41,143 nucleotides of DNA, taken from assembly GCA_041740655.1 (NCBI GenBank), contig JBGSLP010000072.1, forward strand, positions 1 through 41,143. Reading direction: 5' to 3'. Origin of the DNA: Alphaproteobacteria bacterium (GTDB lineage Bacteria; Pseudomonadota; Alphaproteobacteria; Rhizobiales; Rhodomicrobiaceae). Made by a program: the position numbers and the translations under genes. The notes beneath the pieces were generated by a model that saw only the letters and a program-made list of their open reading frames with translations, ran no database searches and was not told where the DNA came from. Positions 23,032 through 41,143 of this stretch are shown here, piece by piece. Within the stretch, counting starts at the first letter, position 1. Every line of letters begins with the position of its first letter.

Positions 23032-23122
23032 CAGGCTCTCCTAATCTGTGGCAATGCATTTCTTTCTGGAAAAGATGCCGTCTTTGACATGGATCATTGA
23101 CAGGGGCAAATACAACCCACAC

Positions 23123-23148
23123 GTTATGACTGACCAGTCGGTCATAAC
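23123..23148. promoter_or_regulatory. 26-bp near-perfect palindrome, candidate TetR operator
   Basis: The sequence is GTTATGAC-TGACCAGTCG-GTCATAAC, with perfect 8-bp outer arms. It lies 13 nt upstream of the exporter ATG at 23162, inside the divergent intergenic region. Confidence 0.5.
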
Positions 23149-23161
23149 AAGGATGAGGGTC

Positions 23162-24181
23162 ATGAGCAGGCGTTTACTTGGCATCGCTGCTATCACCGCC
23201 GGAGTTTTGGCTGGATCATGGTGGATCTATAGCACTCTTATTCGTCCGCGAGAGACCGCCGCTGTCTTTTACGGCAATATCGACATCCGTGAAGTCGATC
23301 TGGGCTTTCGCGTCTCCGGTCGCATCGGCGCGATGAACTTTGACGAAGGCGACGATGTCAAACAGGGCGATGTGCTGGCCGTTCTGGACAAACAGCCGTT
23401 CATGAACGAGTTATCCCTGCAAGCCGCCAATGTGGCGCAGCAGGAGGCCAATGTCGCCAAGCTGCAAGCTGGCAATAGGGTGGAGGAGATTGCGCAGGCC
23501 CGCGCCGATCTCGCGTCACGAAAATCCACGCTTGAGAATGCGCGTGGCGTTTTTCAGCGCCAGAATGAGCTTCAGAAAAAAGAGTTTGCGTCCAAGCAAA
23601 CCTTTGAGGACGCCGCCGCATCGCTCCGGGACGCCGAGGCGAAAGTGCGGTCATCCGAAGAGGCGCTGAAGCTGTCGCTCGCCGGATCGCGCGTCGAGGA
23701 TATCGCCGCTGGCGCGGCCGCGCTGGAGGCTGCAAGAGCGCAGCGGGATGTGGTGCAAACGTCGCTCGCCGACACCGAGTTAAAAGCGCCTGCCGATGGC
23801 GTGATCCTCACCCGCGCCGTCGAGCCGGGCGCTATCGTCGCCTCCAGCACCACCGTTTACACACTATCGCTGCGGAACCCGGTCTGGGTCCGCGCCTATG
23901 TATCGGAGGCCCAACTCGGCCTGCTGCGCCCTGGTTTGGCGGTGAAACTGTACACCGATACGAGGCCCGATGCGCCCTACGACGGCCAGGTCGGCTTCAT
24001 CTCGCCAGTCGCGGAGTTCACGCCAAAGTCGGTTGAGACGACCCAATTACGCGCCGACTTGGTCTACCGCTTCCGCGTGATCGTGAAAACCGCCGATGAC
24101 GCGTTACGGCAAGGCATGCCGGTGACGATCAAAATTCCGGAGAGCGAAGGCGCCCCGCCCGCCATCGCTTCAGGGTCTTGA
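23162..24181 (+). CDS. ybhG: HlyD-family periplasmic adaptor (YbhG-like)
   Basis: An N-terminal TM is followed by a lipoyl-like region (GNIDIREVDLGFRVSGRI), a coiled coil and a beta-barrel region. The ATG at 23162 follows AAGGATGAGGG. Size and gene order match YbhGFSR. Confidence 0.8.
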   Translation: MSRRLLGIAAITAGVLAGSWWIYSTLIRPRETAAVFYGNIDIREVDLGFRVSGRIGAMNFDEGDDVKQGDVLAVLDKQPFMNELSLQAANVAQQEANVAKLQAGNRVEEIAQARADLASRKSTLENARGVFQRQNELQKKEFASKQTFEDAAASLRDAEAKVRSSEEALKLSLAGSRVEDIAAGAAALEAARAQRDVVQTSLADTELKAPADGVILTRAVEPGAIVASSTTVYTLSLRNPVWVRAYVSEAQLGLLRPGLAVKLYTDTRPDAPYDGQVGFISPVAEFTPKSVETTQLRADLVYRFRVIVKTADDALRQGMPVTIKIPESEGAPPAIASGS

Positions 24182-24188
24182 AGCGACA

Positions 24189-25922: not shown

Positions 25923-27055
25923 GCGAGAACGCCCCATCCACTGGACGCGCTCGTCGCTTCCTCGCGTTGCTGCGCAAAGAGTCCATCCAGATCCTGCGCG
26001 ATCCGAGCAGCATCCTCATCGCCTTCGTGCTTCCAATCATCCTGTTGTTTTTGTTCGGCTATGGCGTGTCGCTGGACGCCAATCATGTCCGCATCGGCGT
26101 CGCGGTCGAGGCGTCGAGCGAACCATCACAAAGCCTTGCCGCCAGTTTCCGCGCCTCGCGCTTTTTCGACGTAACCGAGGCGCGGGACAGGCGCGCGTTG
26201 GTGCCGCTGCTCATTGCGGGCAAAATTCGCGGTATCGTCGTCATACCGGCGAGCTTTGGCGAGGACGCCGCCCGCAACGTGCGGACGACCGCTATTCAGG
26301 TCATCACCGACGGCTCCGAACCCAACACTGCCAAGTTCGTCGAGAATTACGCGCAAGGCGTTTGGAGCAATTGGGCGGCGGGCAGGCAGAGCGCCGCCAG
26401 CATGACGCAGCCAGTTAGTCTGGAGCCGCGCTATTGGTTCAACCCGGAACTGACCAGCCGTTATTACCTCGTGCCCGGCGTAATCGCGATTGTCATGGCG
26501 CTGGTTGGCACGCTGCTCACCGCTCTTGTCGTGGCGCGCGAGTGGGAGCGCGGCACGATGGAGGCGATGATGGCGACGCCCATCTCCGTCGCCGAACTCA
26601 TCCTGGGCAAGCTTATCCCGTATTTCGTGCTAGGCCTCGGGGCGATGGCGCTCTGTACGGCCATCGCCATTTTTGTGTTCGGCGTGCCGTTTCGCGGCTC
26701 GTTCCTGGCGCTGCTCCTTATCTCAGCCGCATTTTTGCTGCCCGCGCTCGGCCAAGGGCTGCTCATTTCAGCCGCCACCAAAAACCAGTTCGTCGCGTCC
26801 CAGGCCGCGCTGCTGTCCGGCTTTCTGCCAGCGTTTCTGCTCTCCGGCTTTATTTATGAAATCGGCTCCATGCCGACAATCATTCAGTACATCACGTATA
26901 TCATCCCGGCGCGCTATCTCATTCCCAGCCTGCAAACGGTGTTTCTGGCGGGCGACATCTGGCCGCTGTTCCTTACCGATATTGCCGCCATGCTCGGCAT
27001 CGGCGCGGTGTTCGTGTTCCTCACTGCGCGCACAACACGAAAGAGCCTCGAATAA
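25919..27055 (+). CDS. ybhS: ABC-2 type permease (YbhS-like)
   Basis: ATGA overlap with the ATPase stop. The N-terminus LALLRKESIQILRDPSSILIAFVLPIILL is typical of ABC-2 permeases, followed by a large loop and five C-terminal TM segments. The longer track ORF from 25757 was rejected. Confidence 0.85.
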   Translation: MSENAPSTGRARRFLALLRKESIQILRDPSSILIAFVLPIILLFLFGYGVSLDANHVRIGVAVEASSEPSQSLAASFRASRFFDVTEARDRRALVPLLIAGKIRGIVVIPASFGEDAARNVRTTAIQVITDGSEPNTAKFVENYAQGVWSNWAAGRQSAASMTQPVSLEPRYWFNPELTSRYYLVPGVIAIVMALVGTLLTALVVAREWERGTMEAMMATPISVAELILGKLIPYFVLGLGAMALCTAIAIFVFGVPFRGSFLALLLISAAFLLPALGQGLLISAATKNQFVASQAALLSGFLPAFLLSGFIYEIGSMPTIIQYITYIIPARYLIPSLQTVFLAGDIWPLFLTDIAAMLGIGAVFVFLTARTTRKSLE

Positions 27056-28176
27056 TGTGGCGGCGTCTGCGAGCTTTGATCGTAAAGGAACTGCTGGCGG
27101 TGCTGCGCGATCCGCGGGGACGTTTTATCCTGATCGGCCCGCCGCTTTTGCAGATTTTTCTGTTCAGCTACGCCGCGACGCTTGATGTCAGAAATATCGA
27201 GATCGGCGTACTGAACCGCGACGGCGGACGTGTGAGCGCCGAATTCCTTCAGCAGCTCGACGGCGCACCTGTCATCGCTGGCATCACCCAACTATCGAAT
27301 CTCGCCGAGGTGCGCGAGGCCATCGACAACCGCCGGGTGATCGCGGTGTTGCATTTCGGGCAGGAGTTTTCGCGCGATGTGGCGGCCGGTCGGCCCGCAT
27401 CCGTGCAGGTGATCCTCGATGGGCGGCGCTCGAACTCGTCCCAGATCGTCTTTGGCTATTTATCGAGCATCGCGAGCGGCGTTTCTAATGCCGTAACCCT
27501 CAGCGCTGCAAATTCCGACTCCGGGCCACATGGCGGATCAAACATCGCGGTGCGGCACTGGTTCAACGCAAACCTGAACGACATCTGGTTCATCGTGCCA
27601 AGCCTGCTCGGCACCTTGACGCTGCTCATCGCCCTCACCGTCACCGGCCAATCGGTGGCCCGGGAGCGTGAACTCGGCACTGTCGATCAGCTTATGGTCT
27701 CACCGCTGCGGGTCGGCGAAATCCTCATCGGCAAGACCGTGCCGCCGCTACTTATCGGCCTGGCGCAGACCACGGCGTTTCTCGCTATTGCTACGCTCTA
27801 CTTCCAGGTGCCATTTCGCGGCTCGCTGCTTCTGTTGTATCTCAGCGTGATATTTTTTCTGGCGGCGGTCATCGGCGTGGGCCTGTTCATCTCCTCAATC
27901 GCGCAAACGCAGCAGCAGGCGTTTCTCGGCACGTTCATGTTCACGTCGCCCGCGATCCTGCTCTCCGGCTTCGCGACCCCCATTGAAAACATGCCCGGCT
28001 GGCTTCAGATCATCACCATGGGCAACCCTTTGCGCCATTTCCTCGTCATCGTGCGCGGGGTGTTTTTGAAAGGCATGCCAGCGCTGGACGTGCTGGCTAA
28101 CATTGCGCCGCTTGTCCTTATTGCCGCATTTACGCTCACAACCGCCGCATGGCTGTTCCGCGCCCGTATGGAGTAG
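27055..28176 (+). CDS. ybhR: ABC-2 type permease (YbhR-like)
   Basis: TAATG overlap with the upstream gene. The N-terminus reads LRALIVKELLAVLRDPRGRFILIGPPLLQ. It is a paralog of the preceding permease. Confidence 0.85.
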   Translation: MWRRLRALIVKELLAVLRDPRGRFILIGPPLLQIFLFSYAATLDVRNIEIGVLNRDGGRVSAEFLQQLDGAPVIAGITQLSNLAEVREAIDNRRVIAVLHFGQEFSRDVAAGRPASVQVILDGRRSNSSQIVFGYLSSIASGVSNAVTLSAANSDSGPHGGSNIAVRHWFNANLNDIWFIVPSLLGTLTLLIALTVTGQSVARERELGTVDQLMVSPLRVGEILIGKTVPPLLIGLAQTTAFLAIATLYFQVPFRGSLLLLYLSVIFFLAAVIGVGLFISSIAQTQQQAFLGTFMFTSPAILLSGFATPIENMPGWLQIITMGNPLRHFLVIVRGVFLKGMPALDVLANIAPLVLIAAFTLTTAAWLFRARME

Positions 28177-28250: not shown

Positions 28251-29013
28251 CTAACGCTGCAAACGACCCTGCCAGTAAACAACTTCCGCACCGTTTATTT
28301 CCCATGCGACCTCGCCCGCAAATGGAAGCCACATCCCGTTATACTTGCGATAATCGGAGAAACGGCCTCGCCATGGCGTCGGCAGAAGCGGCGCTGTGGG
28401 GGAGCGCGGTCGATCCCGGGTAAACGGCGGATGCAATTCGCCCTTCCCCGTCGACGCGAAGTGCGACCTCGCCTGCGGTCGCTCCAGAACCCGCACTGAC
28501 GGCCAAAGTGTCGGCGCCGTCCACACGCCAGCGCAATGCGGAGTTCAGGAGAATGGCGTCGGGCGCCCAGGCAAGTTCGGCCAGGTAGCGCATCCGCTCA
28601 CCGCGCATGAGCGCGGGCGTGTGCTCGGCACGGGCGATCGGGATGATGCCGAGCGCGGTGATATCAAAATGGCCCTCGCTATCTGTCAAAGCATCTAGCG
28701 CCGAGATCATGCCAAATGGCCCAGCCCGCGCCCGCCAGTCGAAGGTGCATTCTAGCGTCGAGATCGTTTGGCTCGCGGTGAACGCCATCCACGATTGAGC
28801 GTCAATGGTCAGCATTTCGCCTAAAGCCTCGTTGCGAGGATTGGCTAGCTTTGGCCGACGCCACAATGATAACTTTCGTCGCGAGCACCAAGAGAAGCAA
28901 GATACGGGCAACGGAGCGACGTCGCGCTCATCGGCTCTCGGCCCACGGATCGTAACTGCCGAAGTTCCAGACATGGCCTTCTGGATCGCGGCACGAATAC
29001 ACGCGCCCGCCAT
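28251..29013 (-). pseudogene. Frameshifted gene (DUF6544-like, tentative)
   Basis: Track ORFs 28339..29013 and 28251..28526 overlap in different frames. They read as one protein if a 1-nt indel near 28420-28432 is corrected: ...GEVALRVDGEGRIASA / FTRDRPRSPTAPLLPTPWRGRFSDYRKYNGMWLPFAGEVAWEINGAEVVYWQG. The 5' end also overlaps the upstream VOC gene. Confidence 0.45.
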
Positions 29014-29362
29014 AGTCCTCGTCCTTGATCTCGATCACGATCTGCGCTCCGGCTTTGACGGCTTTTGCGTAATGCGCATCGACGTCTGCAACGATGATGT
29101 ACACGCTTTGCGAGCCTATTCCGCCGATTTGCGCAGGGGATTTAACGAGTTTGCTGAATTCATTGTTCATCGCCGAACCCAACATAATCATCCCGTTGGC
29201 GTAGGTGAGTTGAGCATGGGCGATCGCGCCGCTGGGGTCAGGCACCACAAGATTTTTCTCGAAACCGAAAGCTTCGCATAGCCATTTTATCGCTGCCTGC
29301 CCGTCGCGGTAACGAAGGGTCGGAATGATCGTGCAGTACATAGCCTTAGGTGTGCTCGCCAT
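28928..29362 (-). CDS. VOC (glyoxalase/bleomycin-resistance) family protein
   Basis: IIPTLRYRDGQAAIKWLCEAFGFE...HAQLTYANGMIMLG...YGGRVYSCRDPEGHVWNFGSYDPW is typical of PhnB-like VOC proteins. Confidence 0.8.
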   Translation of the reverse strand: MASTPKAMYCTIIPTLRYRDGQAAIKWLCEAFGFEKNLVVPDPSGAIAHAQLTYANGMIMLGSAMNNEFSKLVKSPAQIGGIGSQSVYIIVADVDAHYAKAVKAGAQIVIEIKDEDYGGRVYSCRDPEGHVWNFGSYDPWAESR

Positions 29363-29413: not shown

Positions 29414-30511
29414 TTATCCCATTGTGACCGCGTTCACGGGGCGGCGCGACGAAAAAGGTAGCGCGGCGCCAAAGCCGAAGCGCATCACGATGTCGGTGCG
29501 ACGGCCGGGTAAGCCGACAAGGCTCGCCAATAAGGGGCGGAGTTTGGCAACTTCGACGGGCTGGTTGATGAAGGCGTGCTTAAGGCCGAGCGCCGTCGCC
29601 TGTAGTGCAAAACGCTGGCAGGCGCGCCCTGCGCGGAACCAATGTTCTTTGTCCTCGCGCTGGGAGACGAACACTGCGATGCCCGCTGACGATCGGATCT
29701 GCCGCGCATATTTGTCGTTCTCCGCGTCCACACCCGCGAACCAGTCAAATGCGAGTGGCCCAGCCCAGGCCGGAGCGATCGGGAGGCCGCTTGCCGCGCT
29801 GAACAGGCCGTCGCCGGTCTCTATCGCCTGGCGCGGGCTGAAGCGGAGCCATGATTTCAACTCGGTTATGAACGCTTGGTCCGCCATCTGCGCGCTGTTG
29901 CCCGCGACGACCAGATCACGCACCTCGTCAATTTGTGGCCGCTCAGTGATGAGCACCAGATCGACGCCGGGAACCGACGCTGTATTCGCCAGTCTCTTCA
30001 AATCGGCGGCGCTGACCGGCCTGCTATCATATTCGGCGCGTGTCGATTGGCGCCGCGGGATGGCGTCAAAGAGGGCGGGCTCGACTGCCTGCCCGCCTCC
30101 GAATGCGAACGCTACGGAGCCATCATTCGCCGGGTTGAAGCTGAGTTCGCCAGCGCGTCCGCGCGCGCCCGCCGCAATCGCCAAATTCTCGGCCGCGCAG
30201 CCCAGACTCGCAAAGAGGTGGTGGTCGTCGGGATCGACAACCGGGGTTCGCCGCGTAAAGTCTGGCAGTATCTCGATGCTTTCGTTGCTAGCGCGAAACA
30301 GCCAAGGTTGGGTGTTGTGGCCGTTCGCGGCGAGGGTTGCGAAGCGGATGAAGTCGCACAGCTCCGGGCGTTCGGCGAGGGCGGCGCGGCTCTCGCCGAC
30401 CCGGGCATCGTAGTCCGCCATCGAACCCATCCGCCGCCATCCAGCATAAGCCGCGCCAGCGCCCGCAACCGCCAAAGCGCCACCGCATAATAGAATTTGC
30501 CGTCTGTTCAT
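29414..30511 (-). CDS. Acg-family FMN-binding nitroreductase-like protein with twin-arginine-type leader
   Basis: The N-terminus reads MNRRQILLCGGALAVAGAGAAYAG. The HNTQPWLF motif and a duplicated nitroreductase-like architecture of about 330 aa are present. ATGA overlap with the upstream gene. Confidence 0.75.
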   Translation of the reverse strand: MNRRQILLCGGALAVAGAGAAYAGWRRMGSMADYDARVGESRAALAERPELCDFIRFATLAANGHNTQPWLFRASNESIEILPDFTRRTPVVDPDDHHLFASLGCAAENLAIAAGARGRAGELSFNPANDGSVAFAFGGGQAVEPALFDAIPRRQSTRAEYDSRPVSAADLKRLANTASVPGVDLVLITERPQIDEVRDLVVAGNSAQMADQAFITELKSWLRFSPRQAIETGDGLFSAASGLPIAPAWAGPLAFDWFAGVDAENDKYARQIRSSAGIAVFVSQREDKEHWFRAGRACQRFALQATALGLKHAFINQPVEVAKLRPLLASLVGLPGRRTDIVMRFGFGAALPFSSRRPVNAVTMG

Positions 30512-31524
30512 AGCGTCGGCGCCGAGTGCGCGCCGACCTGGTAGCCCTGGAGAATTTTCCGATAATTCGCGCGCTCGTACTCTTCCGGATTGCGGATTTT
30601 GCCTTGCGCGAGAAGCCCGCGAATGCGCGAAAGCCCGTCCATGTCGCGCTGGTCCAGCCAGTCGGCCAAACCATCGACGAGTTTGCGCATATGGGGCACG
30701 CCGTGTTCCAGAAGCGCCGATGTCGTCATCACCACGTCCGCACCCGCCAGCAGATATTTGACGACATCCTCGGTGTTATGCACGCCGGTGGTGGCCGCAA
30801 GCGACGCCTTGATCCGGCCATGCAGCACGGCGATCCACAACAGCGGCAGCCGCATGTCGGCCGAACGGCTCAAATCGAGATCGTGGGTAATCTTGAGGCG
30901 CACCACGTCAATATCCGGCTGATAGAACCGATTGAACAGCACCAGGCCGTCCGCGCCGGCCAGCGCTAATTCCCCCGCCATATGCCCGGGCGAGCTGAAA
31001 TACGGGCCGACCTTGACCGCCACCGGGATGGTAACCCGGGATTTCACCACGCGGACGATATTCAGATAGCGATCTTCAATGTCGCGGCCTGAGAGGCTGA
31101 TGTCCGTGGGCAGCAGATAGATGTTCAGCTCCAATGCGTCGGCCCCGGCCTCCTCAAGCTGAGCAGCGTGCTCGACCCAGCTATCTTTGTTTCCGGCATT
31201 GAGGCTGGCGATGATCGGGATTTTGACCGCCGCTTTCGCAGCCCGCACGATTTCCAGATAATGGTCCGCGCCGATGTTATGCGGGTTTGGCGGTGGAAAA
31301 TAACTTGAGGCTTCGGGTGAGCTTAGGGCGCCTGCGCCCGTCAGCGCGTCATGCCGGTGCATCTCGGCGTCGATCTGCTCCGCGAAGATCGAGGGCAACA
31401 CGACCGCGCCCGCGCCTGCGTCCTCCAGCGCGCGGATGTTGCCAAGATCGTTGTTAAGCGGCGAGGCCGACGCGACCAGCGGGTTGCGCAAGGTCAGGCC
31501 CATATAGGTCGTGGTGAGATCCAT
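30508..31524 (-). CDS. Dihydroorotate-dehydrogenase-like TIM-barrel flavoprotein lacking the canonical catalytic Cys/Ser
   Basis: The fold is DHOD class-1-like (LRNPLVASASPL, GADALELNI, GADGLVLFNR, ATTGV). ELNIYLLPTD replaces the N-x-S-C/S-P-N active-site loop. The ATG at 31524 is preceded by GAGGGAG and lies 1 nt after the nifJ stop. Confidence 0.8.
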   Translation of the reverse strand: MDLTTTYMGLTLRNPLVASASPLNNDLGNIRALEDAGAGAVVLPSIFAEQIDAEMHRHDALTGAGALSSPEASSYFPPPNPHNIGADHYLEIVRAAKAAVKIPIIASLNAGNKDSWVEHAAQLEEAGADALELNIYLLPTDISLSGRDIEDRYLNIVRVVKSRVTIPVAVKVGPYFSSPGHMAGELALAGADGLVLFNRFYQPDIDVVRLKITHDLDLSRSADMRLPLLWIAVLHGRIKASLAATTGVHNTEDVVKYLLAGADVVMTTSALLEHGVPHMRKLVDGLADWLDQRDMDGLSRIRGLLAQGKIRNPEEYERANYRKILQGYQVGAHSAPTL

Positions 31525-31525
31525 G

Positions 31526-34500
31526 TCAGACTCCCTCAATGAGCGCTGCGGCGGCGAGCGCGTGGCCGTTGGCCTTCACCGCCGGGCTTGGGTGTTGCTG
31601 TGGCTCCGCCGCGACGCCGGCCTGGTGGATTGCGGCCAAATCTTCATATTGTTGATATTTCGCAGTCGCCCCTGCTTGCGCTTGGGCCATCAGTTCGGCA
31701 GCGACCTTGGGCATGGTGCGCGCCAGCGACGTGTAGCGGATCTCGTTTTTCGCATAGTCCATGAACGGGATGGTGGGCCGCGGGCTGTCGAGCCGGAACG
31801 GGTTCTCGCCAATGGCACGCATGGCAGGGCTGTAGCGGATCAGCGGCCAATACCCGCTCGCCACCGCCAAGTCCTGCTGCTTCATGCCAAAGCGCATGTC
31901 GATGCCGTGGGCGATGCACTGGCTGTAGGCGAGGATGAGCGACGGGCCGGGGTAAGCCTCAGCCTCGCGGAAGGCCTCAAGAGTGTGCTGCGGGTTAGCG
32001 CCCATGGCGACCTGCGCCACATACACGTTGCCATAGGCCATGGTCTGCAGCGCGAGGTCCTTGCGCGCCGTGCGCTTGCCGCCGGTCGCGAACTTGGCGA
32101 CGGCGCCGAGAGGCGTCGCTTTGGAGGCTTGCCCGCCGGTGTTGGAATAAACCTCCGTATCGAGGATCAGCACGTTCACGTCGCGGCCGCTGGCGAGCAC
32201 GTGGTCAAGGCCGCCATAGTCGATGTCATAGGCCCAGCCATCACCGCCGACCAGCCACACGCTGCGCCGCACGAGATGATCGACGACCGAGAGCAGGTTG
32301 CGCGCCGGTTCGCTGTCGATTTTCAGCAGCTTGGTTTTGAGTTCCGCCACTCGGATGCGCTGTCTGCGGATGTCAGATTCCTGGATTTGCTGCGCATTGG
32401 CGATTGCCGCCGCCAGTTCCGGCCCGACGATCGGCGCGAGATCGTCGAGCAGCGTCAGCGCCAGATCGAGATGCTTATCGGCCGCCAATCGAAAGCCAAG
32501 GCCGAACTCAGCGTTGTCCTCGAAGAGCGAGTTCGACCAGGCCGGGCCGCGGCCCTCCCGATCTTTCGTCCATGGCGTCACCGGCAGGTTTGCGCCATAA
32601 ATCGAGGAGCAGCCCGTGGCGTTGGCGATCATGGCGCGGTCGCCGAACAATTGCGACAAAAGCTTGAGGTAAGGCGTCTCGCCGCAGCCCGCGCAGGCGC
32701 CGGAAAACTCAAACGTGGGTTCGAGAAACTGCACGCCCGAGACGTTGGCAAAGTTCACCCGCGCGCGGTCGTTCACCGGCAGCTTTTCGAAGAACGCCAT
32801 GCTGACGCGCTCGGCGTCGAGGATCGGCGCTTTTTCCGCGAGGTTGATGGCTTTCTTGTCAGGCTCTGTTGGGCTATGGGCTGGGCACGCCTCGATGCAG
32901 AGCCCGCAGCCGGTGCAATCCTCCACATAAAATTGCAGCGTAAAGCGCGTTTCAGGATAGCCGCGCGCATTCACGGGCGCCGATTTGAACGCGGCGGGCG
33001 CGCCAGCGAGCTGGTCCTCGTGGTAATTGCGCGAGCGGATCACGCTGTGCGGGCAGACAAAGCTGCACTGGCCGCATTGGATGCAAAGATCGGCCTCCCA
33101 AACGGGCACGAAATCCGAGATGTTGCGCTTTTCATACGCCGCCGTGCCGGACGGGTACGTGCCATCGATCGGCATCGCGCTCACCGGCAGCGTGTCGCCT
33201 AGCCCTCGCATAGCGACCGCTGTAAAAGTCTGCACGAAGGCGGGCGCGGATTTCGGCACGATGGGCGGCTGGTCGAACGCGCTGGTCACGGCGCTCGGCA
33301 CGCGCACTTGGAACAGCTTGGCGAGGGCGCCATCGACTGCGGCGAAGTTTTTGGCGATCACCGCCTCGCCCTTGCGCGCATAGGTTTTTTTGATGGATGC
33401 CTTAATCTGGTCGATGGCCTCGTCGCGTGGCATCACCCCGGAGATGGCAAAGAAGCAGGTTTGCAGGATGGTGTTCGTTAATCCGGCGAGACCCGCCTCG
33501 CGCGCCGCGTTTGACGCGTCGATGACGTAGAATTTCAGCCGCTTGTCGATGATCTGCCTTTGCACAAGGCGGGGGAGACGATCCCACACCTCGTCGGGCC
33601 CATAGATCGTGTTTAGCAAAAAGGTTGCACCGGGCGCGGCGATGCGCAGCACATCCTGCCTGTCCAGAAAATTGAACTGGTGGCAAGCCACAAAGCTCGC
33701 AGAGCCGATGAGATATGGCGCGCGGATTGGTTTTGGCCCGAACCGCAAATGCGAAACCGTCATCGCGCCCGATTTGTGGCTGTCGTAAACGAAGTAGGCT
33801 TGCGCGAACATGCCAGCGTCTTCTGCGATAATTTTCGCGCTGTTCTTGTTCGCGCCAACCGTGCCGTCTGCGCCGAGGCCGTAGAAAACCGCGCGGACTT
33901 CGTCGGCGGCCTCGAGTGTGAAGCTCGGGTCTACCGCCAAACTGGTGTGGGTCACATCGTCGTTGATGCCGACGGTGAAGCTGTTTTTCGGGTCGCGGTT
34001 TTTCAACTCGTCGAACACGGCTTTCGCCATCGCCGGGTTAAAGTTCTTCGAGGATAGGCCGTAGCGCCCGCCGATCACCATCGGCATGGCGCGGCGATTG
34101 CCACGGGCGACGGCTTCGGCGAGCACGGTTACGACATCGGTGTAAAGCGGCTCGCCAACTGCGCCAGACTCTTTTGTCTGCTCGATCACCGCGATATGCG
34201 TGCAACTCGCTGGCAAGGCGGCAAGAAAATGCTCGACCGAAAAGGGCCGGTAGAGCCGCACTTGCAGCACGCCGACGCGCTCGCCCTTCGCCCGCAATGC
34301 CTGCGCCACCTCCATCGCCGTCTCAGCGCCTGTGCCCATGGCGATGACGACCTGCTCCGCATCGGGCGCGCCGTAATAATCGAACAGGCGGTATTGGCGT
34401 CCTGTGAGCTTGGCGAGGGCGTCCATCTGCGCCTGGACGATGCCGGGAACCGCCGCATAAAACGAGTTCGCCGTCTCGCGGGACTGGAAAAACGTATCCG

Positions 34501-35248
34501 GATTTTGCGCCGTGCCGCGAATGAACGGCCTCTCCGGGTTGAGCGCGCGGGCGCGGTGGGCGCGCACCAGATCGTCGCGGATCATGGCGCGGATGTGCTC
34601 GTCCGAGATCAGCTCCAGCGTGTTGATCTCGTGGGAGGTGCGAAAGCCGTCGAAGAAATGCATGAACGGCACGCGGCTCTCCAAAGTCGCGGCTTGAGCG
34701 ATCAGCGCCTGGTCGTGGGCTTCCTGCACAGAGGCGGAGGATAGCAGCGCGAAGCCGCTTGTCCGCACCGCCATCACGTCCGAATGATCGCCGAAGATCG
34801 ACAGCGCCTGCGTCGCGATCGAGCGCGCCGCCACATGGAACACGGTCGCGGTCAGTTCGCCCGCGATCTTGAACATGTTGGGCAGCATCAGCAGCAGCCC
34901 TTGGGAGGAGGTGAAGGTGGTGGTCATCGCGCCCGCTTGCAGCGCGCCATGGACGGTGCCAGCCGCCCCGCCTTCGCTCTGCATTTCCTGAACGACGGGC
35001 ACGTTGCCCCAGATGTTTTTCAGCCCTTCGGATGACCACTGATCCGCCAGTTCCGCCATGGTGGACGACGGCGTGATCGGATAAATCGCGCAGACCTCGT
35101 TCACGCGATAGGCGATGTGCGCGCACGCCGTGTTGCCGTCGATCGTGGTTTTCACGCCAGCTTTTAAAGCGGGTTTGGGGATCGCTACGGTGATTTTCTC
35201 ATCGGGCGCTACGACGGCAACAGCCGCTTTTCCGGTCAACCAGTTCAT
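31526..35248 (-). CDS. nifJ: Pyruvate:ferredoxin (flavodoxin) oxidoreductase, single-polypeptide type
   Basis: The N-terminus reads [28 protein letters not shown]. Ferredoxin-domain motifs are [13 protein letters not shown] and [12 protein letters not shown]. The TPP motif reads [40 protein letters not shown]. The ATG at 35248 overlaps the upstream stop (TGATG). The track ORF start at 35485 was rejected. Confidence 0.9.
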   Translation of the reverse strand: [1240 protein letters not shown]

Positions 35249-36948
35249 CACGCCACACCTATTCCGTTTGAGGTCACTTGCGCCTCGCCATTCACGACGG
35301 CTTGGACGCTCGTCGCGGTTCCGGCGGGTTCGGGGATCATTTCCATGGCGTGGCATGGGCATTGCTCGACACAGACGGAGCAGCCCGTGCATAAATCGAA
35401 GTGGATTTCGTAGCCCCGGCCCGGCCCCAGCTTCTCGATAGCGTCTTCTGGGCATGCGGCGTAGCAATTGTCGCACTCGAAGCAATTGCCGCAGGAGAGG
35501 CAGCGTTTGGCTTCGTGTAGCGCGGCTTGCTGGCTGAGGCCGCCCATGATCTCGGTGAAGCCCTTGAGGCGCGTCACGACGGGCGCTTCGATCTGGGAGG
35601 ATTGCTCGGCGTCGGCATAAATCGGCAGGTTCAGCATGGCGAAGCTGACGAGCGGCGCGAGCGCGGCCTCGGTACGCTTCTCACCCTGCAACCAGGCATC
35701 GATATTGCGAGCGGCTTTTTTGCCGTGGCCGGTAGCGGAGGTCACGGTGCGGTCGCCTGGCACCAGATCGCCGCCCGCGAAAATGCCGGGCGCGCCGGTC
35801 ATCATGTCAGGGGCAACGATCACCGTGCCGTCGGGTTTGAATGCGACGCCTGTCAGCTTGCTTAGGAAGCCGCTATCCGCCGCTTGGCCAAGCGCGAGCA
35901 CCACCGAGTCTGCTTGCAGCGTCTCAAACTCGCCCGTGGGCTGCGGCTTGCCGTCCGCGTCGAGCGCCATGATCTCGACCTTGATATCCCCGTGGCCGAT
36001 GTCGCGAATGCTGGACAGCCACTTGATCTTAATCCCCTCGGCGAGCGCTTCCTCGGCCTCGAAGGCGTTGGCCTCCATGTGCGCGCGGTCGCTGAAGAAC
36101 ACGATCGTGGCTTCCTCCGCGCCCAGACGCTTAGCGGTGCGGGCGGCGTCCATCGCCGTGTTTCCTGCGCCGTAAACCGCTACCCGGCGGCCAAGCTTGG
36201 GCGCCGCGCCCATTTCAGTACTGCGCAGCAGGCTGACGGCGGTCAGCACGCGACCCGCATCCCGCGCCGGGATGTCGATGCGCTTGCCAATCTGCGTGCC
36301 GATGGCGATAAAAACAGCGTCGAAATTGCCCGCTTGTTTCTCGGCGGCCACGTCCTCCACCTTGTGGTTGAGAACGATCTTCACGCCCATCTCTTCGATG
36401 CGTTTGATCTCATGCATGAGGTCTGCGCGCGGCAGCCGGTAGGCCGGAATGCCGAAATGCATCATGCCCCCCGGCATCGGCGCCGCGTCGTGGATTTCCA
36501 CCGCATGACCCAGCCGCCGGAGGTGATAGGCCGCCGAAAGTCCGCTCGGTCCCGCGCCCACCACTAGCACGCGCTTGCCCGTGGGCTTCCCGACGGGCAC
36601 TTTCCAGCCTTGCTCGGAGGCCAGATCGCCAAGATACCGTTCGACCGCGTGGATGCTCACCGCGCTGTCGAGGTCTTTGCGGTTGCAGGCCGTTTCGCAG
36701 GGGTGATAGCAGACGCGCCCATGGACGGCGGGAAACGGGTTATCCTCGACAAGTTTCAGCCAAGCCTTCTGAAACCGTCCAGCCTGCGCATGGTCGAGCC
36801 AGGCCTGAATATCCTCGCCAGCGGGACAAGCGTTATTGCAGGGCGGCAGAAGGCTGACATAGATTGGTCGGTTCACCCTCGCCGGGCCGGTGCCCTTCTC
36901 GTGGGTGATATCGATTATAGGGGTCATATCGCGGGTCTGTATGGTCAT
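35248..36948 (-). CDS. GltD/NfnB/PreT-like NAD(P)H-FAD oxidoreductase with C-terminal 2x[4Fe-4S] ferredoxin domain
   Basis: The N-terminal Fe-S region reads PPCNNACPAGEDIQ...VCYHPCETACNR. The FAD site is VLVVGAGPSGLSAAYHL and the NAD(P) site is VAVYGAGNTAMDAART. The C-terminal clusters read CLSCGNCFECDNCYAACP and CTGCSVCVEQCP. Confidence 0.85.
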   Translation of the reverse strand: MTIQTRDMTPIIDITHEKGTGPARVNRPIYVSLLPPCNNACPAGEDIQAWLDHAQAGRFQKAWLKLVEDNPFPAVHGRVCYHPCETACNRKDLDSAVSIHAVERYLGDLASEQGWKVPVGKPTGKRVLVVGAGPSGLSAAYHLRRLGHAVEIHDAAPMPGGMMHFGIPAYRLPRADLMHEIKRIEEMGVKIVLNHKVEDVAAEKQAGNFDAVFIAIGTQIGKRIDIPARDAGRVLTAVSLLRSTEMGAAPKLGRRVAVYGAGNTAMDAARTAKRLGAEEATIVFFSDRAHMEANAFEAEEALAEGIKIKWLSSIRDIGHGDIKVEIMALDADGKPQPTGEFETLQADSVVLALGQAADSGFLSKLTGVAFKPDGTVIVAPDMMTGAPGIFAGGDLVPGDRTVTSATGHGKKAARNIDAWLQGEKRTEAALAPLVSFAMLNLPIYADAEQSSQIEAPVVTRLKGFTEIMGGLSQQAALHEAKRCLSCGNCFECDNCYAACPEDAIEKLGPGRGYEIHFDLCTGCSVCVEQCPCHAMEMIPEPAGTATSVQAVVNGEAQVTSNGIGVA

Positions 36949-36975
36949 GCCGTTATCTCCAGGAGCCGCTTAACC

Positions 36976-38274
36976 TTAAACTTTGACGGGTGCGCCAATT
37001 GGCGGGATGACAATGAGCGGCGCGTGCGCTGCGGAGCCTGTTTCTTTCAGAAAGAATGCGAGCACGATGCCGACTGCGATGGCGGCAAGGCCCAAGAGGC
37101 CCCATTGCTGGAAGTCCTGCAGATCCAGCGGCGCGCCGCGCGATATCTTCTGCAACGCCCATCCAGCCAAAGGCGCGGCAATCGCGCTGAGCGTGAAGAC
37201 CAGGAAATTCATCGCCCCCGTCGCGCTGCCTTTCACGCCGTCCGGATTGACTTCCTTGATTATGGCGTAAGGGATCATGGCGGCGCCAGACGCGAAGCCG
37301 AACAGGAACCCGCCGAGGTAGGGCGGCAGAATTTCCGGCGGCAGATAAAGGATGGCGGCGGCAAGTGCGAGCATGGCGAAACCGCTGACGATCAGCACGG
37401 GTTTACGGCGGCCCATCCGGTCGGCGATGTAGCCCAGGATCGGCGCGCCAAAGACCCAGCCGAGCGGTATCATGGCTGCCCGATTAACCGCCGTTGCGTG
37501 ATCGACTCCAAACCCCTGCTGAAGCATCGGCACGCCCCAGATCATGTCGCCAATTGTTGTGGGCAGGAACAACAGCCCCGCGCAAAAGCCGCACAGATAG
37601 GATTGCGGATTGGAAAGGACGATTTTGTAGGGCGCGAACATTTGCAGCAGCGAGCCTCGCCCGGCCGGCGTGCGATCGGACTCAGTTGGCGTCGCAAAGA
37701 ATGTGATGACGGCCAGAACCGCGCAAACTGCGCCGGAATAAAGCCAGAAATCCTGCCAGGTGACAACGCCGTGCACGAGCGGCGAGACGGCGAACTGCCC
37801 GGCGAACCCGCCCAGCATGCCGAACATTTGCGTCGCGCCAACCGCCGTCGCCAGGAAACGCGCCGGGAACCCGCGCGCCGCGAGATACACCGCGCCGACA
37901 AATGCAAATGCCGAGCCTGCGCCCTGCAACAGCCTGCCAATGTAGGCCTCTGTGACAGTGCCCCAGCCAAACAAAACCGTTCCCAAGGCCAGACAAGCGA
38001 TGCCCGCCGGGATCGTCCACTTCGCGCCATACCGGTCGAGCGATGCGCCCGCGAACAGCGCGAACGTGGCATAAGTGAAGAAATAAACGCCGAGCAGCGA
38101 GCTGAGGCCGAGCGCATTTAAATTCCACGCCGTAGTCAATTCCGGCACCATCACGCCAGGCGCGGACCTGAGCGCATATTGGATGAAGTAGAACACGGCG
38201 CATAGCAGCCACGCCGCGATGAAAAGCTTGTGAAATTCGCCCGAGCTGCGCGTACCGACTTGAGTTGGCGCCAT
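36976..38274 (-). CDS. MFS transporter
   Basis: Twelve hydrophobic segments are present. The motif-A-like loop reads GASLDRYGAKW. Only 27 nt separate it from the next gene on the same strand. Confidence 0.85.
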   Translation of the reverse strand: MAPTQVGTRSSGEFHKLFIAAWLLCAVFYFIQYALRSAPGVMVPELTTAWNLNALGLSSLLGVYFFTYATFALFAGASLDRYGAKWTIPAGIACLALGTVLFGWGTVTEAYIGRLLQGAGSAFAFVGAVYLAARGFPARFLATAVGATQMFGMLGGFAGQFAVSPLVHGVVTWQDFWLYSGAVCAVLAVITFFATPTESDRTPAGRGSLLQMFAPYKIVLSNPQSYLCGFCAGLLFLPTTIGDMIWGVPMLQQGFGVDHATAVNRAAMIPLGWVFGAPILGYIADRMGRRKPVLIVSGFAMLALAAAILYLPPEILPPYLGGFLFGFASGAAMIPYAIIKEVNPDGVKGSATGAMNFLVFTLSAIAAPLAGWALQKISRGAPLDLQDFQQWGLLGLAAIAVGIVLAFFLKETGSAAHAPLIVIPPIGAPVKV

Positions 38275-38302: not shown

Positions 38303-38432
38303 CATGACGTACCGCCAGTTTGGCCACTTTGCGCAATGTCAAAGCCCAGTCGATTTTGCCATTTGATTTATGTCATAGCGCGCGCAGTGCTTTGAGCGTT
38401 GTTAGAGGCTTCGCAACAACGGAGAGACCGCC

Positions 38433-38849
38433 ATGAAGGGCTTTGTCGAAGACATTGAAAAATTGACCGAAGATAATGACGATTTCCGCCGCGTTCTCTA
38501 CACCGGCAAACACATTCAGGTGGTGCTGATGTCGTTAGCGCCGGGCGAGGACATTGGCGAGGAAGTACACGCCGACGGAGACCAGTTTTTCCGCGTGGAA
38601 AAGGGCAAGGGCGAGGTTGTGATCGACGGCAAGCGCACCAAAGTTAAGGGTGATGACGCCATCGTCGTGCCAGCCGGCGCGCGGCATAATGTAATCAACA
38701 CCGGAGATAAGCCCCTAAGGCTTTACACCATCTATGGCCCGCCAAGACACCGCGATGGGTTCGTCGCGGCAAAGAAAGCCGACGCCCAGGCCTCGACAGA
38801 GCGCTTTGACGGAAAAACGACGGAGAGAACTATTGAGAACAGTCGATAA
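38433..38849 (+). CDS. Cupin-domain protein
   Basis: The cupin motifs read GEDIGEEVHADGDQFFRVEKGKGEV...VVPAGARHNVIN. Confidence 0.75.
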   Translation: MKGFVEDIEKLTEDNDDFRRVLYTGKHIQVVLMSLAPGEDIGEEVHADGDQFFRVEKGKGEVVIDGKRTKVKGDDAIVVPAGARHNVINTGDKPLRLYTIYGPPRHRDGFVAAKKADAQASTERFDGKTTERTIENSR

Positions 38850-38918: not shown

Positions 38919-39620
38919 ATGAGCCGTCTTCGCCAACACCCGGAGAACCATCTTGTCGACCGCATTGGCTGGTTGCGCGCGGCCGTGCTCGGCGCGAATG
39001 ACGGCATCATTTCGACCGCCAGCATCATTGTGGGCGTCGCGGCCGCCACTGCCACGCAAAGCGACGTGTTGATCGCGGGCGTCGCGGGGATGGTGGCAGG
39101 GGCCATGTCGATGGCGGCGGGCGAATATGTGTCGGTGAGTTCGCAATCGGATACGGAGCGGGCCGATCTGGCGCGCGAGACCAAGGAATTGGCGGAAGAT
39201 GCCGATGGCGAACTTGATGAGCTTGCTGAAATTTATGTAAAACGCGGCGTGGATGTGACGCTGGCCCGACAAGTCGCGCAGCAATTAACGGCGAAGGACG
39301 CGCTCGGCGCTCACGCCCGCGACGAGCTTGGCATTTCCGAAATCACCACCGCGCGGCCTGTGCAGGCGGCTCTGACTTCGGCGGTCACGTTCGCGGTGGG
39401 CGCGGCGATGCCATTGCTCATGGTCGCCTTGGCGCCCGCGAACATGCTTATGACGCTCGTATCGTTTGCTTCGCTCGGTTTTCTCGCGCTTCTCGGCGCA
39501 ATAGGGGCAAAAGCCGGCGGCGCAAATATCTGGCGCGCGACGGCACGAGTGACGTTCTGGGGCGCACTCGCGCTGGCGATCACCGCTGGCATCGGCAAAC
39601 TATTCGGCACGGTGGTTTAA
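38919..39620 (+). CDS. VIT1/CCC1-family iron/manganese transporter
   Basis: WLRAAVLGANDGIISTASIIVGVAAA, MAAGEYVSVSSQ and the acidic cytoplasmic helix region ERADLARETKELAEDADGELDELAEIY are typical of the family. C-terminal TM segments follow. Confidence 0.85.
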   Translation: MSRLRQHPENHLVDRIGWLRAAVLGANDGIISTASIIVGVAAATATQSDVLIAGVAGMVAGAMSMAAGEYVSVSSQSDTERADLARETKELAEDADGELDELAEIYVKRGVDVTLARQVAQQLTAKDALGAHARDELGISEITTARPVQAALTSAVTFAVGAAMPLLMVALAPANMLMTLVSFASLGFLALLGAIGAKAGGANIWRATARVTFWGALALAITAGIGKLFGTVV

Positions 39621-41143
39621 TCCGTAATTCCAGTTGTTTTTCGGCTGAACCAGTTGGGCATAAGTCCACCCCAAGCTGGTTTGATCTGGTGGCTTGAAGC
39701 GGCTGCGGGCGTAGGCTCCGCGGTCGCTGACTTTAAATCGAGGACGACGGAATAGAGCGTTGTATCGTCCGGCGTTTGCTCGACGCTGAAGCCAAGCTCG
39801 CGGCACATGTGAATCATGGTCGTGTTTTCGTGCATGACGTTGCCGCGCATCTCGATCAAGCCTTCGCTGCGGGCATAATCGATCAGGTGTCGCATCAGCG
39901 CCCAGCCGAGGCCCTGCCCCTTCAAATCCGAGCGCACGAGGATCGCATATTCGGCATGCTCGTAATCCGGATCGGCGAAAAAGCGGGCGGCGCCGAGCAT
40001 TTCAGGGTCGCCGTACGTCGCCGGGCGCAGGGCGATGAACGCCATTTCCCGCCCATAATCGATTTGGGTCAGCCGGGCAAGAAACTCATGCGTAAACTCG
40101 TCGATGGGCGTGAACATGCGAAGGCGCATATCGCTGGGCGTGACTTTCGCCATGAAGGCGGCGTAGTGGCGCTCATCGTCCGGGCGGATGGGGCGAATAA
40201 GCACGTCGCGGCCATCGCGTAGCTTTTGGGTGGTCTCCCATCGCGCAGGATATGGCCGGATCGCGGGAGGCGGCGCGGGGTGTTTTGCGGTGTCCTCAAC
40301 CCGGATACGCGCATCGAGCGCGATCATACCCTTGTCATCGACGAGGAGCGGGTTGATATCCAACTCGCGGATCGACGGGTGTTGCGTGGCGAGCGCGCTG
40401 AGTTTGACGAGACACAGCGCGAGGCCTGCCAAATCAACCGGCGGCTTATCCCGAAAGCCTTTCAGAAGTTTGTAAACGCGGGTCGACCCGATGAGGTCGG
40501 TCGCCATCATCAGGTCGAGCGGCGTCAGCGCCATCGCAGTGTCGCCGATGACCTCGACACCTGTGCCGCCAGCACCGAACAGGATCACGGGGCCGAAGGT
40601 CGGATCGACTGTGATGCCCAGAATGAGTTCATAAGCGTCGGGCCGGGTGATCATCGGCTGCACCGTGACGCCGTCCAGCGTCGCATCGGGCCGTTTCGCC
40701 TTAATGTCGGCGAGCATCTGGCGCGTGACGTTTTCGACCTCATCCGCCGATCGCAGATCGAGGCGCACGCCGCCAATGTCGGATTTGTGGGAGAGGTTGG
40801 CCGAGAGGATTTTCACCACAATCGAGGTGTGGTCGCGCAGCAATTCTTCTGCGGCTTTCCGCGCAGCTTCGGGTGTCGCCGCGATGCGCGTCGGCACCGT
40901 CGGGATGCCATAGGCGGCGAGCACGGCCTTGGCCTCTGGCTCGCTCATCAGCTTGCGGCCCTCTTTCAACGCGCGTCCGATGCTGATATCGACCGCCTCC
41001 GCATCGAAATGCATGTCGGCGGGCCAGGCGGGCGGCGTATGCATTAATTCAGCCTGCGCCCGGCCATGGCGGGCCAACTGCATGATGCCGCGCACGGCCG
41101 CGCCGGGCGTCTCGAAATCGGGGATGTTCGCGTCGCGGAAAAG
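39617..41143 (-). CDS. ADP-forming acyl-CoA synthetase-like / GNAT fusion (Pat-type protein acetyltransferase-like), N-terminus outside the window
   Basis: The frame is open to the window edge. The ATP-grasp subdomain reads EPEAKAVLAAYGIPTVPT...IVVKILSANLSHKSDIGGVRLDL. The C-terminal GNAT domain reads EYAILVRSDLKGQGLGWALMRHLIDYARSEG. The gene overlaps the VIT gene end by 4 nt, convergently. Confidence 0.85.
   Translation of the reverse strand, partial: LFRDANIPDFETPGAAVRGIMQLARHGRAQAELMHTPPAWPADMHFDAEAVDISIGRALKEGRKLMSEPEAKAVLAAYGIPTVPTRIAATPEAARKAAEELLRDHTSIVVKILSANLSHKSDIGGVRLDLRSADEVENVTRQMLADIKAKRPDATLDGVTVQPMITRPDAYELILGITVDPTFGPVILFGAGGTGVEVIGDTAMALTPLDLMMATDLIGSTRVYKLLKGFRDKPPVDLAGLALCLVKLSALATQHPSIRELDINPLLVDDKGMIALDARIRVEDTAKHPAPPPAIRPYPARWETTQKLRDGRDVLIRPIRPDDERHYAAFMAKVTPSDMRLRMFTPIDEFTHEFLARLTQIDYGREMAFIALRPATYGDPEMLGAARFFADPDYEHAEYAILVRSDLKGQGLGWALMRHLIDYARSEGLIEMRGNVMHENTTMIHMCRELGFSVEQTPDDTTLYSVVLDLKSATAEPTPAAASSHQIKPAWGGLMPNWFSRKTTGITD

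Follow-up and report, generated by a model that had tools for sequence, protein, structure and literature searches.

A conserved nifJ neighbourhood with two separable flavoprotein genes in an alphaproteobacterial contig, and a proposed pyruvate-oxidation module centred on PFOR

The stretch of DNA analysed here, hereafter the window, comprises nucleotides (nt) 1 to 41,143 of contig JBGSLP010000072.1 of an alphaproteobacterium of the Rhodomicrobiaceae (GenBank assembly GCA_041740655.1). On its minus strand a nifJ gene, coding for a single-chain pyruvate:ferredoxin (flavodoxin) oxidoreductase (PFOR), lies between the genes of two flavoproteins, a GltD-like protein carrying a ferredoxin tail (GltD-Fd) and a protein resembling dihydroorotate dehydrogenase (DHOD) and dihydropyrimidine dehydrogenase (DPD), here termed DHODL. 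Comparison with related loci showed that the conserved entity is nifJ with two separable neighbours, and neither a five-gene unit nor an obligate pair split by an insertion. With moderate confidence, we propose that GltD-Fd, nifJ and DHODL encode a PFOR-centred module for pyruvate oxidation at low oxygen, having as its two separable partners the NAD+-linked GltD-Fd and DHODL as a flavin side acceptor. The locus adds one more example to a very widespread arrangement, named by NCBI families and noted in two papers. We believe that the quantitative linkage figures, the separability of the partners and the exclusion of the outer genes MFS and Acg from the conserved unit are new here, together with the permutation and likely NAD(H) specificity of GltD-Fd and the family-wide loss of the catalytic base in DHODL with retention of flavin-site residues.

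Organisation of the Locus

The nifJ gene belongs to a run of five minus-strand open reading frames (ORFs), in the order MFS, GltD-Fd, nifJ, DHODL and Acg. This layout, with its four junctions, had been given in a preliminary description of the window, and all the ORFs and junctions were confirmed in the sequence, as were, by profile searches, the domain identities assigned to the five products. MFS and GltD-Fd are separated by a 27-nt gap. The GltD-Fd gene (35248–36948) codes for a GltD/NfnB-like FAD and Fe-S flavoprotein of 566 aa with a C-terminal 2x[4Fe-4S] ferredoxin domain (NF009410), and its TGA stop codon (35250–35248) shares a base with the nifJ ATG (35248–35246) in a TGATG overlap. 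The nifJ gene (31526–35248, 1240 aa, TIGR02176) ends with a stop codon at 31528–31526, 1 nt away from the DHODL ATG at 31524, and a Shine-Dalgarno-like GAGGGAG read from the sequence at 31531–31537 lies inside the nifJ 3' end, 6 nt before that ATG. DHODL (30508–31524) is a DHOD/DPD-like TIM-barrel protein of 338 aa, devoid of cysteine and probably FMN-binding (NF005741), and its stop overlaps the Acg start in an ATGA at 30511–30508. No Rfam family was found anywhere in the window, and a scan for promoters and terminators returned nothing over background within the operon.

The PFOR lying between the two flavoprotein genes had been regarded as complete and single-chain. Indeed, TIGR02176 matched it at full length (residues 35–1205; 1706 bits against a cutoff of 911) and the Pfam domains POR_N, PFOR_II, POR (gamma), EKR, Fer4 2x[4Fe-4S] and TPP_enzyme_C were all present and in order. 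The nifJ start codon is provisional, the first ~34 residues falling outside the PFOR model.

Conservation of the nifJ Neighbourhood

The linkage of PFOR with its two flavoprotein neighbours, usually with translational coupling of the genes, was examined in two independent surveys. In survey 1, DHODL served as seed in a collection of species-representative genomes and the best 80 loci of at least 596 species were considered; in survey 2, GltD-Fd was the seed and 80 metagenome loci were considered. Adjacency is given over the loci with enough flanking sequence. The nifJ gene was found directly upstream of DHODL in 77/79 loci of survey 1 and directly downstream of GltD-Fd in 70/71 loci of survey 2, so that its adjacency to each partner is far beyond chance. 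The best 80 loci of survey 1 were distributed over more than 10 phyla, including Pseudomonadota, Nitrospirota, Bacteroidota, Ignavibacteria, Chloroflexota, Cyanobacteria, Verrucomicrobiota, Acidobacteriota, Actinomycetota, Gemmatimonadota, Planctomycetota and others. The gap between nifJ and DHODL had a median of 35 nt, with overlaps in 16/107 loci; that between GltD-Fd and nifJ had a median of about -4 nt, a value biased to small gaps by the choice of the start candidate nearest the stop.

As for the third gene, GltD-Fd was directly upstream of nifJ in 24/51 loci of survey 1, the other 27 having nifJ and DHODL in a cluster devoid of GltD-Fd, and in survey 2 DHODL followed nifJ in 28/40 loci, the remaining 12 clusters consisting of GltD-Fd and nifJ, with no conserved gene found 3' of nifJ. 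Three combinations are thus found, namely the triad, nifJ with DHODL, and GltD-Fd with nifJ; GltD-Fd beside DHODL without nifJ in between was never seen in the 160 surveyed loci. When PFOR sequences were grouped, those from clusters lacking GltD-Fd fell together, and the GltD-Fd clusters lacking DHODL appeared in at least five separate places. The scattering of these DHODL-less clusters among triad clusters points to repeated loss or relocation of DHODL. The triad was also found plasmid-borne in several genera, being annotated by PGAP on plasmids of Methylovirgula sp. HY1 and Phenylobacterium zucineum; the small ORFs 3' of DHODL on two plasmids are unrelated to each other. By clustering of the ORFs of 80 loci, other neighbours proved sporadic (ppsA, USP, CBS, histidine kinase and PFK, each in at most 8 loci).

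These distributions bear directly on the view, advanced in the preliminary description, that PFOR is embedded between the two halves of a split DPD. In its obligate form, GltD-Fd and DHODL would build a PreT/PreA-like heterotetramer reducing some substrate with NAD(P)H, and PFOR would be either co-expressed or an alternative electron input. The joint domains do equal those of DPD (N-terminal Fe-S, FAD, NAD(P), FMN barrel, 2x[4Fe-4S]), the structure closest to that of DHODL is the DPD FMN domain, and both partner genes occur together in roughly half to 70% of the clusters. However, each flanking gene is found with nifJ without the other (27/51 and 12/40 loci) after several independent losses, which argues against an obligate split enzyme, and in the 160 surveyed loci they were never seen side by side without nifJ between them. 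Moreover, the catalytic Cys and the substrate Asn of DPD are missing from DHODL, and GltD-Fd is nearer to NfnB and StnC than to PreT or DPD, as detailed below. We consider such an obligate split DPD to be unlikely.

Three cyanobacterial loci (L044, L084 and L167) were compared as to the surroundings of DHODL. In Chlorogloeopsis (L044) the nifJ-DHODL pair is adjacent; the detached DHODL homologue lies beside PFK and hypD in Acaryochloris and beside LDH, ppsA and ADH in Stanieria. Being still near such genes, the detached cyanobacterial DHODL appears to stay within fermentation gene neighbourhoods.

The GltD-Like Protein with a Ferredoxin Tail

GltD-Fd belongs to NF009410/PRK12771 'NAD(P)-binding protein' (739.8 bits against a cutoff of 516, residues 5–540) and contains the domains Fer4_20, Pyr_redox_2 and Fer4_7 followed by a C-terminal dicluster. 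The location of a 2x[4Fe-4S] domain on the GltD-like protein, and not on the DHOD-like one, as initially reported, was thus supported by the profile matches. The scores with the GltD/PreT models were below cutoff (TIGR01318, 229.8 against 482.95; TIGR01317, 186.9 against 447.7), and the closest solved relatives were the GltD domain of StnC (8oh5_C, E=8e-86), 9bov_A, 9n5u_A (Bfu-type) and NfnB (4ylf_B, 1e-64), with GltD and DPD structures scoring far below StnC and NfnB.

The HMMER alignment to NfnB is split, NfnB residues 46–462 aligning to GltD-Fd 36–423 and NfnB 14–43 ('...EAQRCLQCP') to GltD-Fd 458–487 ('...EAKRCLSCG'). This indicates that GltD-Fd is a circular permutant, in which the segment providing the first two ligands of the distal cluster comes after the Rossmann domains, as in StnC. 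In accordance with this, the N-terminal Fe-S region (residues 37–88; 36685–36840, minus strand), compared among 27 orthologues, has only five conserved Cys (Cys37/41/80/84/88), the distal cluster having its first two ligands not there but at Cys483/486. The permuted segment and the ferredoxin domain together span residues 458–535 (35344–35577, minus strand) and read '..EAKRC483LSC486G' followed by two CxxCxxCxxxCP motifs; eleven Cys are conserved between residues 483 and 532 in the 27 orthologues, and a TIGR02179 PorD/KorD-like match covers residues 485–540.

Ligands were assigned by alignment to NfnB with the ligand numbering of PMC7596348. Cys37/41/80/84/88 correspond to NfnB Cys47/51/90/96/100 and the invariant E103 to the Glu ligand of NfnB. 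By this alignment, Cys41/80/84 and E103 occupy the positions of the NfnB proximal cluster and Cys37/88 with Cys483/486 those of the distal cluster, and another eight Cys are predicted to form a PorD-like two-cluster ferredoxin domain. GltD-Fd thus has the FAD and Fe-S core of the NfnB type, in which the proximal cluster, as read from the alignment, would be Glu-ligated, and its likely cofactors are four [4Fe-4S] clusters and FAD.

With regard to the pyridine nucleotide, residues 283–288 (VFFSDR; 36085–36102, minus strand) align to IVYRRT of NfnB and IIYRRT of StnC. At the YRR site, the GltD-Fd family has F-x-x-D-R, with D287 invariant. The YRR motif binds the 2'-phosphate of NADPH, and in DsrL proteins its loss goes with NAD(H) use (PMC7596348). 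Since YRR is lost, GltD-Fd probably uses NAD(H).

The DHOD-Like Protein

DHODL was assigned to NF005741/PRK07565 'dihydroorotate dehydrogenase-like protein' (446.9 bits against a cutoff of 303, residues 1–330). With the PreA model NF006183 it scored 72.5 bits against a cutoff of 335, over residues 2–198 only, and it has no C-terminal 2x[4Fe-4S] domain. The AF2 model is a TIM barrel (pLDDT 79), for which Foldseek returned the FMN domain of DPD first and then class-1 DHODs, with TM of ~0.6. The family comprises ~975 clusters at 50% identity (E≤1e-30). All of 150 representatives are of ~330 aa except P0385, a protein of 500 aa having an N-terminal response-regulator receiver domain, which is the sole fusion among them.

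In the place of the catalytic N-x-S-C-P-N loop, DHODL has ELNIYLLPTD (residues 132–141; 31102–31131, minus strand), which aligns with ELNISCPNV of DHOD B and LELNLSCPHG of DPD. The loss of the catalytic residue from this loop had already been pointed out for the single protein, and the alignments extended it to the family: among 143 diverse members, position 136 is mostly Tyr and position 137 variable, no Cys or Ser is conserved at the catalytic site, and the loop has also lost its C-P-N Asn. In the same 143 members, E132 and K171 are invariant and S107, F197, G247, S45, R199, N134, N109 and N198 nearly so. K171, N109, N134, N198 and G247, each conserved in 130–143 of the 143, match FMN/substrate positions of DHOD and DPD; the FMN-site positions considered for DHOD were Lys164, Asn67, Asn127 and Asn193 and the Gly-rich phosphate loops. 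A further stretch, F-N-R-F-Y-Q-P-D (residues 197–204; 30913–30936, minus strand), was invariant and family-specific in alignments of 74 and 143 sequences and corresponds to the 'MINT' segment of DHOD B; its N198 is the counterpart of the FMN/substrate Asn of DHOD, and R199 is a hallmark of the family.

One could ask if DHODL is a genuine, divergent dihydroorotate dehydrogenase, namely the PyrD of the cell, which by chance follows nifJ. The protein has a Pfam DHO_dh match (E=2e-10), and JGI annotations read 'dihydroorotate dehydrogenase (fumarate)'. Nonetheless, it remained far below the PyrD equivalog cutoffs (NF005574, 77 against 269 bits; NF041011, 72 against 330), it is devoid of a Cys/Ser base and of cysteine altogether, its loop lacks the Asn of C-P-N, the name given by the NCBI curators is 'DHOD-like', and the triad is carried by plasmids in several genera. 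The identification with PyrD was rejected on these grounds and seems to us extremely improbable. In a study of 2009, in which the tree of life was rooted, PRK07565 was equated with the membrane-bound class-2 PyrD (PMC3224940); as the family lacks the catalytic residue, that assignment looks mistaken.

Proposed Electron Flow and Alternative Readings

Barrels of the DHOD/DPD type are normally fed by a neighbouring Fe-S domain, a role played in DHOD B by PyrK and in DPD by domain V. In the module that we propose, PFOR would have two dedicated, separable redox partners and would not rely on the free ferredoxin pool. The ferredoxin-like tail of GltD-Fd would dock on PFOR as ferredoxin does, with electrons presumably flowing one by one from PFOR to the FAD, which in turn would reduce NAD+ rather than NADP+. 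PFOR and GltD-Fd would then act together as a ferredoxin-independent pyruvate:NAD+ oxidoreductase, an oxygen-independent stand-in for pyruvate dehydrogenase. The flavin of DHODL, putatively FMN, would accept electrons leaving the ferredoxin-type domain of either PFOR or GltD-Fd, much as DPD feeds its FMN domain from an Fe-S domain; given that DHODL has no Fe-S domain and that PFOR and GltD-Fd each carry a ferredoxin-type two-cluster domain, it may be reduced by one or both of them. From there electrons might pass to an acceptor at the remodelled site formed by Y136, R199, Y201, Q202 and D204.

A route from pyruvate to NAD(P)+ had been suggested in the preliminary description, and it appears plausible by analogy with stand-alone NfnB-like proteins: two of them, CAC0764 and Tsac_2085, are proven Fd:NADP+ reductases (PMC9365771; PMC12221290).

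Several observations weigh against the proposed module. Gene linkage is the sole line of evidence for a physical complex of PFOR, GltD-Fd and DHODL: none of the 150 DHODL representatives is fused to PFOR, GltD or ferredoxin, no PFOR column or indel separates clusters with and without GltD-Fd when a docking signature is sought, and the AF2 model of GltD-Fd (pLDDT 56) is too poor for checking cluster geometry. The DHODL family does not conserve an equivalent of Lys43 from the DHOD FMN site, which makes FMN binding by DHODL putative. Distant DHODL homologues (37–46% identity) are not beside nifJ in Bacteroides, Parabacteroides, Acaryochloris and Stanieria, and the Fnr-type boxes upstream of the present operon are all imperfect. 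Lastly, the counts of clusters with a single partner refer to the clusters themselves, and a partner gene missing from one of these is not proved to be missing from the genome.

Some of these points fit a situation in which the genes are co-regulated hypoxia or fermentation genes with physically independent products, staying with nifJ solely through a need under shared conditions, GltD-Fd being a general ferredoxin:NAD(P)+ reductase and DHODL an unrelated FMN reductase. Genes such as ppsA, USP, CBS, PFK, ADH and LDH also occur near these clusters, distant DHODL homologues sit apart from nifJ, and fusions are absent from the 150 DHODL representatives. Yet the order is fixed (77/79 and 70/71) and start/stop overlaps are frequent across phyla, whereas any other neighbour is found in no more than about 8/80 loci, and the fused ferredoxin tail suggests a dedicated docking partner. 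Physical independence of the products is, in our judgement, unlikely.

In another scheme, flavin-based confurcation or bifurcation would take place, the FAD of GltD-Fd merging low-potential electrons of PFOR with higher-potential electrons of DHODL for the reduction of NAD(P)+, or working in reverse. The higher-potential electrons might come, for instance, from quinol or from a dihydro-substrate. A mechanism of this kind was proposed for the Propionibacterium cluster in view of its co-regulation and of how a PFOR knockout behaved (PMC7650540), and GltD-Fd does retain the NfnB-type E103 and R171, the latter aligned with NfnB R201. Nevertheless, the nearest solved homologue, the GltD domain of StnC, is non-bifurcating and so are the stand-alone NfnB-like Fnor enzymes (PMC9365771), the third partner is dispensable in many clusters, and DHODL, whose chain opens with the barrel itself, has neither a counterpart of the NfnA [2Fe-2S] cluster nor an N-terminal quinone-binding domain of the class-2 DHOD type. 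We judge this scheme to be quite unlikely. A supercomplex of PFOR, GltD-Fd and DHODL, which would represent a new class of electron-confurcating (or bifurcating) pyruvate oxidoreductase with energy-conserving NADH formation, is likewise improbable; if true, it would imply such energy conservation in microaerobes, propionibacteria and others.

Low oxygen probably induces expression of the PFOR-centred module. On the minus strand, 55–100 nt upstream of where MFS starts, two Fnr/FixK near-boxes were noticed (38329–38376), ATGACATAAATCAA at 38376–38363 and TTGACATTGCGCAA at 38342–38329, each with one mismatch to TTGA-N6-TCAA and both kept in a 93%-identical relative; they may possibly constitute a low-oxygen promoter element. 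Perfect Fnr/FixK boxes were located within 300 nt upstream of 11/125 related clusters, corresponding to 0.29/kb versus 0.026/kb elsewhere in the loci, i.e., an enrichment of ~11-fold.

Relation to Described Systems

Two other systems are comparable in the proposed net reaction, which brings electrons from PFOR to a pyridine nucleotide via a dedicated flavoprotein. PNO of Euglena and Cryptosporidium has a fused module of the cytochrome-P450-reductase type with FMN and FAD, and in the PFOR-flavodoxin-FqrB route of Helicobacter, FqrB is a member of a different flavoprotein family and needs flavodoxin. Unlike both, the partner considered here is an NfnB-like polypeptide of its own, equipped with Fe-S clusters and probably specific for NAD+.

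Among the NfnB-like proteins, GltD-Fd shares with NfnB and StnC the FAD, two Rossmann domains and the positions of the proximal and distal [4Fe-4S] ligands, and the permuted 'EAxRCLxC' segment following the Rossmann domains is common to GltD-Fd, StnC, 9BOV and 9N5U. The StnC GltD domain (8OH5) is a non-bifurcating module for electron entry from NADPH to Fe-S. GltD-Fd differs from NfnB and StnC in having a fused PorD-like 2x[4Fe-4S] tail and FFS in place of YRR, in being encoded immediately upstream of PFOR, and in its lack of an NfnA, StnAB or NuoG-like partner; indeed, no NfnA-type gene (PyrK-like, [2Fe-2S] and FAD) is present among the five genes of the operon.

The order of domains (Fe-S, FAD, NAD(P), linker, C-terminal ferredoxin) is also similar to that of DsrL, which, with its C-terminal ferredoxin domain included, is a dedicated NAD(P)H:DsrAB oxidoreductase (PMC7596348). 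In GltD-Fd, on the other hand, the partner would be PFOR and not a sulfite reductase, and the permutation has moved distal-cluster ligands into the C-terminal part. Homologues linked to genes of pyruvate or ketoisovalerate oxidoreductases were explicitly excluded by the authors of the DsrL study, whose criteria also call for a dsrAB organism, and GltD-Fd, whose gene is directly linked to nifJ, falls under this exclusion (PMC7596348).

As to DPD (the pig enzyme and PreT/PreA of E. coli) and class 1B DHOD (PyrD/PyrK), the summed domains of GltD-Fd and DHODL equal the DPD set, and both of these enzymes, to which DHODL is structurally nearest, pass electrons from an Fe-S domain to the FMN barrel next to it. 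DHODL departs from them in that it lacks the catalytic Cys and the loop Asn and that the Fe-S domain is on another subunit, GltD-Fd. Moreover, GltD-Fd and DHODL are not obligately co-encoded and do not reach the PreA, PyrD and GltD cutoffs.

The preliminary description knew of no characterised example of this combination of genes. This holds for the biochemistry, as the literature search found no biochemical characterisation of DHODL or of the GltD-Fd/PFOR pair, but not for the arrangement, which is known from two reports and from the DsrL exclusion (PMC7650540, PMC11368403, PMC7596348). In Propionibacterium, PFOR is flanked by 'GltD-like' and 'DHOD' genes, co-transcribed and co-regulated with it, a PFOR knockout cripples growth, and a bifurcating complex was postulated (PMC7650540). 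By the annotations of that paper, on which the orthology is based, families and order are the same as in the present locus. In Synechocystis, the nifJ transcription unit consists of sll0741 (nifJ), sll0743 and sll0744 ('dihydroorotate dehydrogenase (fumarate)') and is transiently induced on entry into microoxic conditions (PMC11368403). This operon has an extra small ORF and no GltD-Fd gene, the orthology with our locus again being based on the annotations of the paper. The locus in the window, unlike either cluster, has MFS upstream and an overlapping Acg downstream.

For each partner, the survey concerned gave at least 589 loci or species with its gene next to that of PFOR, from more than 10 phyla; among them are a model cyanobacterium, propionibacteria of industrial use, methanotrophs and glycogen accumulators of wastewater. 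PFOR has a central role in anaerobic and microoxic carbon metabolism, and its electrons are usually shown entering a free pool of ferredoxin or flavodoxin. If the partners are functional, many metabolic models would route these electrons wrongly. The question also bears on redox engineering, e.g., for a ferredoxin-independent conversion of pyruvate to acetyl-CoA with formation of NADH. As to annotation, the DHOD-like family is still misnamed by some sources as 'dihydroorotate dehydrogenase (fumarate)'.

Local Additions and Other Features of the Window

MFS and Acg, which the preliminary description had counted as operon partners, are local, lineage-specific additions outside the conserved unit. 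The MFS gene (36976–38274, minus strand), the first of the local operon, codes for a transporter of 432 aa (MFS_1, PF07690, E=1.6e-36), with weak NCBIfam matches all below cutoff and no sequence match found in the PDB. An MFS gene was upstream of the cluster in 0/80 species loci and 4/80 metagenome loci, and is present in the close relative L081. Acg (29414–30511, minus strand) is an Acg-family (Rv2032/Rv3131-type) FMN protein of 365 aa with a nitroreductase fold (NF047509, 292.2 bits against a cutoff of 199, residues 54–362), its gene being translationally coupled in this locus. An Acg homologue was found in 0/160 related loci, and in the closest relative (GCA_031399085.1, 92–94% identity) a SulP/STAS gene stands between DHODL and Acg.

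The Acg family is best known from cytoplasmic mycobacterial proteins. A twin-arginine (Tat)-type signal was hence unexpected at the N-terminus of the present protein, where it was recognised in the translation by its motif, MNRRQILLCGGALAVAGAGAAYAG (MNRRQILL...AYAG; residues 1–24; 30440–30511, minus strand). Owing to this signal, Acg is probably periplasmic and outside a cytoplasmic PFOR assembly; its candidacy as a member of a cytoplasmic complex was rejected for this reason and for the lack of conservation with the cluster.

Divergent from the MFS-PFOR operon, a Cupin_2 gene (38433–38849) and a VIT1 gene (vacuolar iron transporter family; 38919–39620) lie on the plus strand, the same being found in L081; the iron transporter gene thus adjoins an operon rich in Fe-S proteins. 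Further on, an ORF that runs off the end of the window (39617–41095, minus strand) encodes ATP-grasp_5 and GNAT domains, forming the C-terminal part of a Pat-like or ADP-forming acetyl-CoA synthetase-like protein. It is also beside the cluster in L081 and may be linked to the acetyl-CoA made by PFOR. Downstream of Acg, a glyoxalase/VOC ORF and a DUF6544 ORF (28339–29013 and 28928–29362, minus strand) overlap by 86 nt as called, so that one of the starts is probably wrong. A one-mismatch Fnr-like box, TTGATCTCGATCAC, at 29025–29038, was described as lying inside this overlap.

Elsewhere in the window, two perfect Fnr/FixK boxes, TTGATCTAAATCAA and TTGACCTGGATCAA, were found at 15229–15242 and 16078–16091, ahead of three plus-strand ORFs. 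The first of these (15266–15616) has a universal-stress-protein-like C-terminus, the second (15628–15978) encodes a small c-type cytochrome with a CSSCH motif, and the third (16163–17770) a 535-aa kinase-like protein with an AAA_33/Zeta_toxin domain, which we take to resemble the mycobacterial hypoxia-regulon protein Rv2004c. The perfect boxes, together with the USP-like, cytochrome and Rv2004c-like genes, Acg and PFOR, suggest that the window is a low-oxygen response island.

Two other minus-strand ORFs, at 12687–13970 and 6219–7646 (427 and 475 aa), had no Pfam match at E≤1e-5. Finally, immediately downstream of the PFOR region (22405–28176), a TetR gene is divergent from genes for an HlyD-family adaptor, a double ABC ATPase and two ABC-2 permeases, which make up a complete efflux system seemingly unrelated to the PFOR operon.

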